Shown here piece after piece: positions 1 through 5,486 of a stretch of DNA of 64,000 nucleotides. The translations under genes were made by a program, and so were the position numbers. Where the stretch lies: assembly GCA_963849325.1 (NCBI GenBank), contig CAWKHF010000007.1:288001-352000 (forward strand), in the 5' to 3' direction. Position 1 is the stretch's first letter; each line of letters opens with the position of its first letter. This stretch comes from an uncultured Planctomycetota bacterium. Lineage in GTDB: Bacteria > Planctomycetota > Planctomycetia > Gemmatales > Gemmataceae. Below the pieces are notes generated by a model. That model did no database searches and was not told where the DNA came from. It saw only the letters and a program-made list of their open reading frames with translations.

Positions 1-943
1 CTTCTAGCTCTTTCCAGCGGGCCACATCCTCCGCGGCGGTCAGGACCGGTTTCGCCTGCGTCCGCGGCACAACCGAAATCGGCGTTGGTAGGAGGGTCCG
101 TTCAATCGGCTTCTCGATCACCCCCTTGGTAATGGGCACCATCTTTTGGTCGGCGGCCGCCTGACCCGGCTTGGCCATTTTCTTCAAAGCTTGTGCCTGG
201 CCGCGATGATAAGCGCGGACCAGCAGGTCTCGATTCGCCTCGGAGCTGGCCTGAGCGTTTTTAGCGACCGCACAAAGAAGGCTGAGTTGAGCCACATATC
301 CGGACTCGGTGTATATCCCCGGCAGTGCATCCACCACCAAACCGTCGGGAGTGCAGACCGAGCTGAGGATGTTGCCGTGGAGGGTGCGGGTCAGCACCTT
401 GCCGTTGCCGAAGTCGATCCGCACGATCGGCACCGGACGCACGCTCTCCCACACAGGCTCGAACGATTGGTTGATGAAGTCGGCGACGCGGTCCTGGGAG
501 AACAACACGGTTCTCGCGAGACGAGCGTTCGTTCAGCAGAAGCGGTCGTCGAGCCGGCCCATCATCTGAAAGAGCAGCACGGGCTTGCCCGACTTCTTCG
601 CCGCCGCGCAGGCCGTGTCCAAATCCTTGTGCCAGCGGACCTTGCCGGGCTGGACCTTGGGGTTGACGAACGTATCACCGGGAGGGGTCGCGGCCGGGAC
701 GGTTCGCGCGGCCAACACCTTCTCGGTGGGGACTTCGATGACGTATTTGCTGAAATCGCGTATGTCGATGACGTTCGGGACGTTCGGTGCCGGTGCGGCC
801 ACGAGGTTCATGGCCGGCTGCGGGGTGGGCGGCTTCGGGGGTCTGTCGCCGGCGAAGGCACGCGCCAGGAGTAGGACGGTCAGTCCGACCACTCCGACTT
901 CCACGATACACGAGAGACGATGGCGCCGTAGGGTTCGTTTCAT
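1..943 (-). CDS. Putative secreted thioredoxin-fold selenoprotein (SelN-like, Cys-Sec motif); in-frame TGA at 533-535; runs off the window edge
   Basis: GGAGG RBS then ATG at 943; signal-peptide-like N-terminus; thioredoxin-like WHKDLDTACAAAKKSGKPVLLF; then GRLDDRFC-TGA-TNARLARTVLFSQDRVADFINQSFEPVWESVRPVPIVRIDFGNGK... with no further stop to position 1. Confidence 0.75.
491..522 (-). promoter_or_regulatory. Candidate bacterial SECIS hairpin
   Basis: mRNA GUCU-CGC-GAGAAC-(CGUGUU)-GUUCUC-CCA-GGAC starting at nt 11 after the UGA; perfect 6-bp upper stem, G at loop position 2, 4-bp lower stem. Confidence 0.5.
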
Positions 944-1070
944 GACAAGAATCCTCCAGTACGGGATTAACCGGCTCGGAAGGCGAGCAACGGGTTTCCG
1001 GGAGGATTCTACCCGCGGACGTGGGAGGATTGCGCAACAAGTTGGTAACGAGTGAAGGGAGGTCTCGGCG

Positions 1071-1612
1071 CTACTGGATGCGGAGGCTGCGGACGTACTC
1101 GGCCTCGCGGGCGATCTCCCCGTCGGAGAGGCCATCTTGCCGCTGGTCATGTCCAGGGCCATGACGTCGATCAGGCCGTTGCTGCCGACGCCGCCGCGCA
1201 CCTGCACCGGCGCGGCTCGGCCCGGCTGTAATCTCTCCGCGCGGTACAGCCCCGCAAGATCGCGCAAGCTGTCCGCATAGCACGGATTCGCCGTCGAAGG
1301 AGACGAACGGATCGGTGATGGTGTCATCGCCGGCGGCGACGAGGACTTCCTCGCGGCCGTTGGGATGGAGCAACATCAGGTCCGAACCCGGCTCCCCTCG
1401 CAGCGGGCTGAACACTTCCGTCCAGGCGATTTGCTTGTCGTCGCCCCGGCGCGGTGCCCGCACGTAGACGAGGTCGTAGTCGTAGCGAATGGATTGGTCG
1501 GCCGCGAGGGGCGGCGGGTTGACGTTGTACACGCGGTTTTTTTGTCCGGCCCGGCCGAAACCATCGCCGACAGAAGGGCCATCACCAGGATGGCAAAAGC
1601 GACTCGCTTCAC
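1071..1612 (-). pseudogene. Truncated/frameshifted secreted protein; N-terminus resembles HzsA/TolB-like beta-propeller proteins
   Basis: Signal peptide MKRVAFAILVMALLSAMVSAG (1376..1612 ORF) continues in another frame as YDYDLVYVRAPRRGDD...GSDLMLLHPNGREEVLV...DPFVSFDG, then decays. Confidence 0.5.
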
Positions 1613-1639: not shown

Positions 1640-2995
1640 TTACTTGTTTGCAACCGCTCCAGGTAGCGCGGCAACCGGCACGGGAACCAGCGATTGGAGG
1701 AGTTTACCGCTGGGCAATTCGTAAAGCTGAACGAGTCCGCTCTTGCTACCCAGGGCGAGGCGCGAGCCGTTGGCATTGAGCGATACCGCGTACACCGGGG
1801 CGGGCGCCTTGCTGAGGAGGGCGACGCGCTGACGGTTGGCGATCTGGTAGACACGAACTTCGCCGAAATGGCCGGCGACGGCCACGAGCTTGCGATCGCC
1901 GCTGACGCCGAGGGCGTGGACCTCGCCCGGTTGCGCCTCGAAGTTGCCGGCATATTGATTGCGCGGGACGCCGCTCAGAGCGGTCTTCAAGGTGTAGGCG
2001 CTGAGGGTCCGCGCCCGGCCGGCCGAGATCGCATAGAGATCGTTGGCGGCCACGGCGCCGATCAACTCCGGCGAACTGTCGATGGTCCGCAGCAACTCGC
2101 CGGTCTGGGCGCTGGCGACCTTGGTGGCCTTGTCGCGTCCACCGCTGACGAGCATCTTGCCGTCGGGCGTGTAGGCGACCGACAACACCCAATCGCTGTG
2201 CAGCTCGAAACGGCGGAGCGGCTGCTTCGGGTCAACGGGGACGACGTACACGGCGCCGTCGGCGCCGCCCAGGGCGATCGCTTGGCCGTCGGGAGCGAAG
2301 TTGCCGCGAAAGAGCGTGTCCTTGCCGATACGGCGAGCGGAGACGAGTCGGCCGTCCGCCGGGTCGAGGAAGCGAGCCTCGCCATACTGACCGGGCGTGC
2401 CGCCGACGGCCGCCAACAGCTTGCCGTCCGGGCTGAACTCGACGTGTGTGACCAGGTCGCTGGCCGTCGGCACGCGCGCGGTCGGCGCCGTTCCCTCCAC
2501 GTCCACCAGGACGACCTCACTGCGGCAAGCCGCCGCCAGGCGCTTGCCGTCGCCCGACAGCGCCACGCTCGTGACCGCCGGCGCGAACGTGTACGTCTTG
2601 GGAGCCTTGATTTCGATGCGCGGCTTGTCGGCCGGCGAGTCATCGGGAGCGCCGACCGCGATCCACTTGCGGAGTATCTCGATCTTTTGAGGCGACAAAG
2701 GTGGCTGCTTCTGCGGCATGGCCGGCTCGGGGCCGCTGATGGCCTCGATCAGCAGGCTATCCTCGGGCTTGCCGGCCTGGAACAACGGGCCGCTGCGGCC
2801 ACCCTTGCGCATGTCGGCGACCGTGTCCAGGCTCAACTTGCCCTTTGGCTTGGCCGAGGAGTGACAACCCCAGCAGTGTCGTTTCAAGATCGGCTGCACC
2901 TCGTTGCGATAGCTGACCGCCGGCTCGGCGCTCCGCGCCGGCAGGACCATCCCGAGAAACAGACTTGCAGTTATCAGCATCGAGCGGCGTCGCAT
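1640..2995 (-). CDS. Planctomycete cytochrome c (PSCyt1) domain + WD40-repeat protein
   Basis: Signal peptide, PILKRHCWGCH heme motif, MP...WI..GA, followed by WD40 repeats (FSPDGKLLA, VAYTPDGKMLVSGGRD). Confidence 0.9.
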   Translation of the reverse strand: MRRRSMLITASLFLGMVLPARSAEPAVSYRNEVQPILKRHCWGCHSSAKPKGKLSLDTVADMRKGGRSGPLFQAGKPEDSLLIEAISGPEPAMPQKQPPLSPQKIEILRKWIAVGAPDDSPADKPRIEIKAPKTYTFAPAVTSVALSGDGKRLAAACRSEVVLVDVEGTAPTARVPTASDLVTHVEFSPDGKLLAAVGGTPGQYGEARFLDPADGRLVSARRIGKDTLFRGNFAPDGQAIALGGADGAVYVVPVDPKQPLRRFELHSDWVLSVAYTPDGKMLVSGGRDKATKVASAQTGELLRTIDSSPELIGAVAANDLYAISAGRARTLSAYTLKTALSGVPRNQYAGNFEAQPGEVHALGVSGDRKLVAVAGHFGEVRVYQIANRQRVALLSKAPAPVYAVSLNANGSRLALGSKSGLVQLYELPSGKLLQSLVPVPVAALPGAVANK

Positions 2996-3027
2996 GGCCC
3001 GGATCTCCAATCCTCGTGGCGGGACAG

Positions 3028-5486
3028 TTAATGGACCAGGAGGAAATCCTTGCTGTTGAGCAGCGCCCACATCAAATCCTGGGCCGCCTCCGTCCGTTTC
3101 GCGCTGCCATAGGTTTGGAACAACTGGAGCGACACCTGCTTTTCCTTGTCGCCGGGTCGGCGGCACAGTGACCACAGGTAGATCTGTTCGACCAACTGCT
3201 CGTCACTCGGTTTCGCCTTGAGGAGTTGAGCGAGCCGGCCGTTGGCGGCGTTGACGCGGTTGACGATGACGTTGCCGTTGAGGAAGTGCAGCGCTTGTAG
3301 CATGTTCGAGCCGTCGTCGCGTTCGCACTCGCACGCCTCGACGCGCTGCGGCTTGCCGAACAGGTTGAGGAATTCGCTCTGGACCTCGGCATCGGGCAGC
3401 TGCTTGGCCGTGAACCCCGCCGGTGCCCCGCCGAAACGCTCGGGGACGCCCGTGGCCTGTACCAGTGCGTCGAGCAGCGACTCGGCCGGCAGCCGGCGTG
3501 GCACCATCCGCGAAAAGTTCATGTCGTCCTCGGCATTGGTTTCGTTGGGGATGCTGCTGCGCTGGTAAGTGCGTGAGTTCACGATGGTCCGCATCAGATG
3601 GCGAACGTCGAACTGATGGGCGACGAAATCTTTCGTCAAGGCGTCGAGCAACTCGGGATTGACGGGCGGGTTCGTGGTGCGGATGTCGTCCACCGGGTCG
3701 ATGATGCCGCGATGGAAAAAATAGCTCCAGACGCGATTGGTCAGGCTGCGAGCGAAGAACGGATTGTCCGGCGACGTCAGCCACTTCGCATAGGCTTCGC
3801 GGCGATCGACGTTAAGAAGGTCGATGTCCGCGCCGCCGAGGAAACGCGGTTTTTGCAGCTGTCCCGAGCGCGGGTTGCGCGAATAGCCGGCCGTCTTGCG
3901 GACGAGGATGGCCCGCGCCGTGGGACGCTGGGGAGTCGCGGGTCGTCCTTGGCGGCGACCTGGTTGAAGAAACTGTGCAGACCGTAGTAATCGGCCTGCG
4001 TCCAGTTCTCGAAGGGGTGGGCATGGCAGCGGGCGCAGAGCATACGGATGCCACAGAAGACCTGCGTGACGCGCTGCAAGGAGTCGTCGGCGTCCTTGCT
4101 GATGGCAAAATACGCCGACGCCGGATCGTCGGCGACGCCGCCGCGGCTGGTCAGCAGGCGACGGGCGAACTCGTCCAACGGCATGTTCGAGGCGACGACG
4201 CCGCGCAGCCACTCGCGCAGGGCGTACACAGCCGGTTCGCTCAAATGCTTGCGGCTGTTCTGCAACAGGTCGCCCCATTTCAGCGACCATTGATCGACAA
4301 ACTCCGGCCGTCGAAACAGGACATCGATGACCTTCGTGCGCTTGTCCGATCCTTTATCGCTCAGAAAGGCGAGTACCTCGTCGGCAGTCGGCTGGACGCC
4401 GATTAGGTCGAGATGGACGCGGCGGAGGAAGGTGACGTCGTCGGCCAATTCGGATGGCTGAAGGCGCAGATCGTTGAGCTTGCGGGCGACGAACTTGTCG
4501 ATGAGATTGTCCTCGGGCGGCGGCGCCGGTTGGAAGCTGGGGTTGGGCTTGAGGACGATGAAATTGGCCGTGGCGAAGACGCGCTCGAAGCGAGCGGATA
4601 CCGCCGTCTCGCCCAGCTCGCGGGCGGTGACAAGTCCGGCTTCCTCGACGCTGGCGACGCGCTCGGTGTTGACGGTGTAGATGCCCAGGCGCGTCACGTC
4701 GCGGACGCTGCCGTCGCTGTAGCGGGCGAGCAGTTGCAACGGGTGCTGCATACCGGGTGAAAGGACCACTTTTTGCGGAACGATGTCGAGGCCGACCATC
4801 TTGACCGGGTCGTCGAGGTCGGCTCGCGCCCCTTCGCGGACCCAGCCGAACAGCGCTTGATGCAGCAGGCCGTCGCGCGGGAAGCGGATGCCTCCCTCGT
4901 GCGGCACGTCACCGAGCGGCTTGGTCAACAGCAGACTGGCCGGCGGGTTGTGGCGGTTGACGCGGCGCTCGAAAAACTCGTCGGTGAGCCATTGGTAATC
5001 GTCGGCCGGGTCGGCGCCGCGCAGCGACAGTTTGAAGCCGTTCTTGCCGAGAGAATAGCCGTGGCACGCCCCCTGATTGCAACCGCCCTTGGACAGGACC
5101 GGCATGACCTCGTGACGAAAACTGTAGGGCGGTTCCTTTCCGGGCAGCTGGACCTCGACCTTGACCACGGCCGACTTGCCCCCGGCCGCGATGGTGATGT
5201 CGGCACGGCCCGAGCCGATCGGCCGCGCCCAACCGTGTACATCGACCTTGACCACCTTGTCGTTGCTGGAGCGATAAGCCGCCTGCGCCGTCAGGTCGAG
5301 CGACAGGCCGTCGGCGGATCGGCCGGCGACAAGCAGGGAGTGCGGCCGGCGCGGATGCGTCAGCCGCAGCGACGCCGGTTGCACGCGCAGGTCGCCCACC
5401 GGAACAGGCGGCGCCGCGGCCTGGACCGCCATTGCCGCCAGCAGACTTCCGACGATCCCGTATCCACTTCGCATCGGCGTGAACAT
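3028..5486 (-). CDS. DUF1549/DUF1553 protein with Ig-like domains (frameshift near 3910-3950)
   Basis: GCNQGACHG, FLRRVHLDLIG, CARCHAHPFENWT, NRVWSYFFHRGIIDPVDD, CECER, WALLNSKDFL across two overlapping ORFs. Confidence 0.9.

Follow-up and report, generated by a model that had tools for sequence, protein, structure and literature searches.

Mammalian thioredoxin reductase carries a vicinal pair of cysteine and selenocysteine (Sec, U) on the flexible C-terminal tail of the flavoenzyme and works through a vicinal selenenylsulfide. In selenoprotein N (SELENON), PMC8584023 describes an S-C-U-G motif, called reminiscent of the thioredoxin reductase centre, and an EF-hand calcium-binding domain; PMC10650576 also gives the EF-hand domain and describes a type II endoplasmic reticulum membrane protein. 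Table 1 of PMC13188914, a May 2026 review of 119 prokaryotic selenoprotein families, lists neither a family resembling selenoprotein N nor one that combines a thioredoxin fold with a CU motif. Searches of the accessible literature returned no paper on a bacterial selenoprotein N, and supplements (e.g. table S9 of PMC4807772) may list members. Here we describe a gene at the start of a 64,000-nucleotide stretch (the window) from an uncultured Planctomycetota bacterium of the family Gemmataceae, corresponding to G000:C7:288001-352000 in assembly coordinates. The gene lies on the minus strand and has an in-frame TGA directly after a cysteine codon. From the sequence comparisons below, its product is very probably best explained as a single selenoprotein of 383 residues with a Cys-Sec active site in a thioredoxin fold.

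Conservation of an in-frame TGA

The coding sequence occupies positions 1..943 of the window (minus strand), where it comprises codons 1-314 of 383, and continues beyond base 1. It starts at ATG 943-941, and a Shine-Dalgarno-like GGAGGA that may serve as its ribosome binding site lies 8 nucleotides (nt) upstream (952..957, minus strand). The frame runs into the TGC of Cys136 (536..538) and then the TGA at 533..535, codon 137, as the preliminary description of this DNA had proposed; the peptide that it quoted on both sides of the stop matched the translation letter for letter. When TGA was read as U, the window part gave 314 residues with U137 as the single non-standard step and was otherwise stop-free to base 2, confirming the 177 open codons reported between the TGA and the window edge. 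Past the edge, 69 further codons lead to a TAA at G000:C7:287792-287794, for a total product of 383 aa. The earliest in-frame start 3′ of the TGA is GTG 508-506, nine codons on (open reading frame [ORF] 2..508). No Shine-Dalgarno or GGAGG-like site was seen by eye upstream of this GTG, and the earlier statement that no ribosome-binding-site-backed restart follows the TGA therefore holds.

Conservation of the TGA was assessed in 27 orthologous loci with peptide context, two of which (L015 and L019) were the same contig, leaving 26 distinct loci with the window included. The Sec column held TGA in 25 of these and TGT (Cys) in one, L039 of genome G082. Since the same TGA recurred in 24 of the 25 loci other than the window, the in-frame TGA is more than a chance occurrence. 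A second genome of the same genus as the Cys-form G082 (G147, locus L038) has TGA at this column. The preceding residue was Cys in all 26 loci (TGC 24, TGT 2), the motif F-C-U-T was present in 25 of 25 Sec-form loci, and FC-U-TNARLARTVLFS was conserved across the stop in the orthologous loci with no start codon between. Consistent with the placement of the TGA on a Sec position with conserved flanks, which had been predicted from the window, Cys occupied the column in 16 of 20 full-length, stop-free database homologues; the remaining four had Ser, Trp, Gly and Glu (one each). These four are P0124, P0095, P0151 and P0156, of which the Trp form (P0124) could reflect either a TGA read with a different translation table or a real TGG.

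The family is not confined to close relatives. Matches were found in 74 of 151 genomes of the Gemmataceae, and nearly all those that crossed residue 137 held exactly one TGA. Among 400 sampled genomes of Planctomycetota outside this family, 43 had a match (E ≤ 1e-20), giving 45 match rows with one TGA in 31 and none in 14. The protein family occurs in many Planctomycetota families. The alignment also bore out the expectation that the downstream frame would be conserved and that homologues would not end at the TGA: protein conservation extends on both sides of the stop. Over positions 300-800, the window was compared with relatives' contigs from four sequencing runs in four studies, and five records bridged 533-535. 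No difference at these three positions was among the differences listed, a list that excludes 24 lesser ones. One of the five records came from a metatranscriptome library, and an RNA library may hold DNA. These contigs give weak support for the TGA.

The preliminary description had also anticipated that gene callers would split the gene at the TGA, and database entries bear this out. A search of a collection of 5.8 billion proteins returned 952 matches (E ≤ 0.001), and of the best 120 of these, 119 were 222-290 residues long and covered 60-62% of the query, that is, the part after the TGA only. The single longer match among the best 120 was P0095 (363 aa, 83% of the query). The downstream piece of this very gene is present as P0003, a 238-aa entry that is 100% identical over 62% of the query, and N-terminal pieces are present as separate entries (P0211 and P0215). 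In 15 of 15 loci, the downstream piece began 27 nt from the first base of the TGA. A search of representatives of 50%-identity clusters gave 2354 matches (E ≤ 0.001). All ten full-length homologues that were looked up were unnamed or called 'hypothetical protein'. When one of the full-length homologues (P0131) was used as a protein-atlas query, no named cluster was matched; the clusters found were unnamed and commonest in Myxococcota and Cyanobacteriota.

A putative SECIS hairpin and the selenocysteine machinery

A candidate bacterial selenocysteine insertion sequence (SECIS) lies downstream of the TGA. The core hairpin (498..515, minus strand) begins 17 nt after the UGA and has a 6-bp stem (515-510/503-498) and a 6-nt loop, CGUGUU (509-504), located 23 nt after the UGA. 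The GTG at 506..508, the false start chosen by gene callers for the downstream piece (ORF 2..508), falls within this loop. The bacterial SECIS criteria of PMC13188914 (section 5) are a 4-16-bp stem carrying a loop of 3-9 nt, a G within the first two bases of the loop, a UGA-to-loop distance of 16-37 nt, and a minimum free energy (MFE) of at most -7.5 kcal/mol. The hairpin agrees with all four: its loop has 6 nt on a stem of 6 bp, with G then U at loop positions 2-3, at a distance of 23 nt, and the MFE of the 60-nt fold is -18.1 kcal/mol. An extended stem-loop enclosing the core hairpin was predicted at 484..531 (minus strand), with a lower stem that is unconserved in the orthologue alignment. 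A search of Rfam with window positions 1-1500 gave no match up to E 1.

The core hairpin was present in 25 of 25 Sec-form loci with its six stem pairs kept; four pairs were invariant and two varied only from A to G, producing a G.U pair. In the Cys-form locus L039, two changes fell in the hairpin stretch, one outside the stem and one in the loop. Codon choice over the hairpin was nearly frozen in the 26 loci: Ala at +6 was GCG in 25 and GCA in one, Arg at +7 was AGA in 21 and AGG in five and never CGN, Thr at +8 was ACC (24/24), Val at +9 was GTG (25/25), Leu at +10 was TTG in 24 and CTG in two, and Phe at +11 was TTC (26/26). Elsewhere in the gene, columns of Ala, Arg, Thr, Val and Leu with the same degree of conservation used 3-6 codons each, with a codon entropy of ~1.3-2.3 bits. 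When the whole genome was scanned for TGA codons with a CGUGU-loop hairpin behind them, there were 14 matches, and none in a reversed-sequence control; only the selenoprotein gene and a paralogue on contig C12 look real among the 14, and the scan carries no weight here.

The presence of selA, selB, selD and tRNA-Sec in the genome had been set as a check on the Sec assignment, and all four were found. The tRNA-Sec, with anticodon UCA, is located at C6:239940-240031, and selA, selB and selD are on C12, each scoring above its curated cut-off; selA and selB look frameshifted in this assembly of 14 contigs with an estimated completeness of 84.7%. TGA is the commonest stop of the genome, ending 859 of 1465 long ORFs, and is not reassigned genome-wide.

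Protein architecture and relation to described families

The structure of the product was predicted with AlphaFold from a 37-sequence alignment (mean pLDDT 79.3). The N-terminal segment, residues 1-31 (851..943), is basic then hydrophobic, ends ARAFA/GD, forms a predicted helix over residues 2-30, and is a candidate signal peptide or signal anchor; orthologues have similarly hydrophobic N-termini. A disordered, Pro-rich stretch follows (residues ~31-95). Residues 96-212 (308..658) were confidently predicted to form a thioredoxin fold of the Thioredoxin_7/DsbH/UAS type that spans the TGA, in agreement with the thioredoxin-like domain proposed around this codon in the preliminary description. 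The C-terminal domain, residues 213-383, is helical with a low-confidence linker at ~255-300; it starts at 2..307 and runs out of the window. Six loci of one sub-clade (L035-L040, genomes G125, G068, G146, G147, G082 and G145) carry a long Gly-rich insert of GGFGGG repeats between the thioredoxin and C-terminal domains, which fits a flexible linker joining two modules. The N-terminal segment suggests that the protein is exported or membrane-anchored, its Sec domain facing away from the cytoplasm, an orientation that we infer.

In the AlphaFold model, strand beta-1 comprises residues 122-128 and helix alpha-1 residues 138-147, which puts Cys136 and Sec137 at the N-terminus of alpha-1. From this secondary structure, Sec137 would take the usual place of the attacking Cys of a CxxC motif. 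The sequence has no Cys at +3 from Sec137. In a structure search, with which Foldseek was concordant, the nearest solved folds were 3f9u_B (score 11.1, root-mean-square deviation 2.4 Å over 107 residues), 3ira_A (9.9), 7tkv_B (9.5), AGR3 (9.2), DsbH (8.8), the DsbD C-terminal domain (8.0) and UAS domains (8.0 and 7.8). Judged from the predicted model, the nearest solved folds are exported domains of the Thioredoxin_7/DsbH type. Sequence profiles gave the same families below threshold: Pfam Thioredoxin_7 (PF13899) scored 15.5 bits and Thioredox_DsbH (PF03190) 12.5 bits, and the gathering score of 27 was reached by neither. Thioredoxin_7 matched 10 of 21 family members at E ≤ 0.1, and sequence searches of the Protein Data Bank (PDB) with the protein and the family profile returned nothing relevant. 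Unlike the exported proteins of this type used for comparison (3f9u, 7tkv, DsbH 2ju5, the DsbD C-terminal domain 1vrs, HP0377 4fyb, AGR2/3, and the UAS domains 2dlx and 2ec4), the planctomycete protein has C-U-T-N in place of CxxC, contains selenocysteine and an extra helical domain, and stays below the Pfam gathering score.

Three paralogues were identified in the same genome, at G000:C6:177631-178647 (plus strand), G000:C12:861929-863011 (minus strand) and G000:C7:475650-476846 (plus strand). In each, an in-frame TGA falls in the profile column of U137, and a hairpin follows it. Two of the genes read F-T-U-N-N-A and one reads R-C-U-N-G-A-R; the C6 and C12 paralogues have a CGUGU-loop hairpin 18 nt after the UGA, and the third has an AGUU loop. 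In a distant Cys-form clade (13 of 20 homologues), the motif reads S-C-A-N-S-R, its Cys aligned with Sec137. Cys136, as read from these alignments, is not a superfamily constant: Ser precedes the Sec column in this distant clade, and Thr or Ala does so in paralogues. Its replacement in relatives suggests that the main residue can act alone there. Tandem arrangements of two superfamily domains were seen in other Gemmataceae: in L046 (G088:C265) each of the two domains carries a TGA, in the motifs F-A-U-M-G-S and H-C-U-L-A-G, and L042 (G066:C272) has Cys in the first (S-C-M-G-S) and TGA in the second. NCBIfam gave no match at E 0.01 for the three paralogues and two full-length homologues.

With the protein itself, the only selenoprotein models of NCBIfam release 20 with any signal were those of the VPGUxxT family (residues 94-164), NF041383 (E 4.2e-5, 23.3 bits against a cut-off of 275) and NF041382 (E 6.9e-4, 19 bits against 350), and neither cut-off was reached. 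The VPGUxxT family is listed as 'OS_HP5' in Table 1 of PMC13188914. Like these (seleno)proteins, the planctomycete protein is thioredoxin-like with one Sec, but its motif is not VPGU. With the Gly-Cys-Sec-Gly centre of mammalian thioredoxin reductase it shares the vicinal Cys-Sec pair, a chemical precedent that implies no homology; unlike the reductase tail, the pair here would lie where helix alpha-1 of a thioredoxin fold begins.

The comparison with SELENON gave both likenesses and differences. In both proteins Sec immediately follows Cys, and both have one N-terminal membrane or signal segment with the Sec part non-cytoplasmic, as predicted here from the sequence and the AlphaFold helix of residues 2-30. 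In contrast to the S-C-U-G hallmark, the planctomycete motif is F-C-U-T-N-A-R, and the protein has a family-specific C-terminal helical domain. Pfam matches with E values up to 1 included no EF-hand family, and no entry named selenoprotein N was among those listed by the PDB sequence and fold searches. The preliminary description had called the protein SelN-like; identity around the Sec to the human sequence that it cited would presumably be about one third. Kinship with selenoprotein N is plausible, as a lead and not as membership. It is possible, though doubtful, that the family and its paralogues, with Sec after Cys, Thr or Ala and some tandem two-Sec forms, are the bacterial side of a selenoprotein N superfamily, a large Planctomycetota radiation of exported Thioredoxin_7-like selenoproteins with the signature G-x-L-D-x-x-x-[C/S/T/A]-U-x-x-x-R-x-x-R.

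No functional hint came from the gene neighbourhood in 15 loci, where only the two halves of the selenoprotein gene itself were widely common. Downstream neighbours in these loci included a phosphoglucomutase-like gene in four and a two-component pair in three. A promoter and terminator scan yielded nothing usable. Downstream of the selenoprotein gene lies a fragment of an IS110-family transposase (L001:3-710, minus strand; G000:C7:286503-287210; Pfam DEDD_Tnp_IS110, E 1.3e-8). The gene upstream (window 944-1532, minus strand) looks frameshifted, which agrees with the earlier view that other gene breaks in the window are indels; an ORF at 1071-1532 overlaps, in a different frame, the selenoprotein frame when this is extended upstream (to 1327). 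Farther upstream on the minus strand, 1640-3175 encodes a PSCyt1 and WD40 protein, a typical planctomycete gene, and a PSCyt2 (DUF1549) ORF at 3777-5486 overlaps a PSD1 (DUF1553) ORF at 3028-4290, which together look like one frameshift-broken gene.

Alternative readings and significance

Several observations weigh against a selenocysteine-containing redox protein at this locus. Compensatory changes were absent from the hairpin, where both bases had changed in 0 pairs, and its fold was no better than that of shuffled sequences (z -0.52; 54 of 200 shuffles folded as well). In the assembly, selA is in three frame pieces (frames 2, 0 and 2) and selB in two (frames 1 and 0) at G000:C12:1294158-1297495. 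The organism's own sequence was not found in the public sequencing runs searched, where the best share of sampled words was 0.21, and the contigs that bridged the TGA were those of relatives. In a few homologues the Sec column is occupied by Ser, Gly or Glu, from which it would follow that some members work without a redox residue there. Finally, we infer the redox mechanism, its substrate and its reductant. Covariation is lacking because the hairpin is invariant, and support for a SECIS element comes from this invariance and from the frozen synonymous sites in the alignment. The breaks in selA and selB are probably assembly indels, since selA was intact in five of five relatives, including one genome of the same genus and the Cys-form G082.

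If the TGA were a true stop, the locus would yield two proteins, an anchored N-terminal one of 136 residues and another of 238 residues restarted at GTG 508. This is what gene callers currently annotate, with the downstream piece alone in 119 of the best 120 database matches and N-terminal pieces as entries of their own, but the nine codons between TGA and GTG are conserved as protein, full-length Cys homologues and the TGT orthologue exist, and the GTG has no GGAGG-like site by eye; we consider it very improbable. That the assembly is error-prone and the gene decaying, with the TGA a nonsense mutation or a misassembly, might be suspected from the apparent frameshifts in selA, selB and the gene upstream of ATG 943 and from the genome completeness of only 84.7%. 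The apparent assembly errors are indels and not substitutions, however, the downstream frame is intact and conserved, and the same TGA is found at nearly all other orthologous loci, in other assemblies, and in 31 of 45 match rows from 43 further Planctomycetota genomes, which makes such an origin of the TGA barely conceivable. Indeed, the pattern of the TGA over orthologues, homologues and the phylum cannot be explained by a nonsense mutation, an assembly error or separate genes. Readthrough with a near-cognate Trp, Cys or Arg, or a local change of the code, might be suggested by the Trp at this column in P0124, but TGA is the commonest stop of the genome, the Sec machinery is present, the position and loop of the hairpin are as expected of a bacterial SECIS, and the alternative residue in 16 of 20 homologues is Cys, the usual partner of Sec; it too is highly improbable. 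The sequence data thus argue strongly that the UGA encodes Sec and that the product is one protein.

The main rival concerns function: with UGA read as Sec, the Cys-Sec pair might be a binding site for soft metals or metalloids (Cu, Hg, As or Se itself), used in trafficking or detoxification, and not a redox centre. Table 1 of PMC13188914 gives a CU motif for several metal-related families (HgcA, the MerB-like SaoL, the metal-binding double selenoprotein MbdU and a 2Fe-2S form of the CopZ family), and a resolving Cys at +3 is lacking. Against this, the fold and the nearest solved relatives (DsbD C-terminal domain, DsbH, HP0377, AGR2/3) are those of thiol-disulfide oxidoreductases, and Sec would be at the classical nucleophile position. 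No conserved metal genes lie nearby in the 15 loci. Relatives that retain Cys or Sec at the main position have Ser, Thr or Ala in place of the neighbouring Cys, and this speaks against a site that needs both ligands. Metal binding is therefore unlikely, and action of the protein in thiol/selenol redox chemistry is likely. The preliminary description had proposed an exported redox selenoprotein; the Sec gene, the Cys-Sec pair at a thioredoxin-fold active site and the N-terminal export or anchor segment stood, and the redox role is a proposal from fold and motif.

As a mechanism, SelB and tRNA-Sec would recode the UGA at codon 137 under the direction of the hairpin 17 nt downstream. The selenolate of Sec137 may then attack an oxidised extracytoplasmic substrate, such as a disulfide, sulfenate or peroxide. 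Cys136 would resolve the adduct to give a vicinal selenenylsulfide, which a reductant would recycle.

The family described here, together with three paralogous families in the same genome, is apparently an uncatalogued group of selenoproteins. A widespread gene has been recorded as two 'hypothetical proteins', and its recognition adds one selenoprotein family, and three paralogous ones in this genome, to those named by NCBIfam models at present. In the literature covered here, a thioredoxin fold with adjacent Cys and Sec at its nucleophile position is described only for animal selenoprotein N. The TGA (G147) and TGT (G082) orthologues within one genus offer a natural comparison of Sec and Cys at the same site. 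If the kinship with selenoprotein N is true, these planctomycete proteins would provide a tractable microbial model for the chemistry of SELENON, a human muscle-disease protein.

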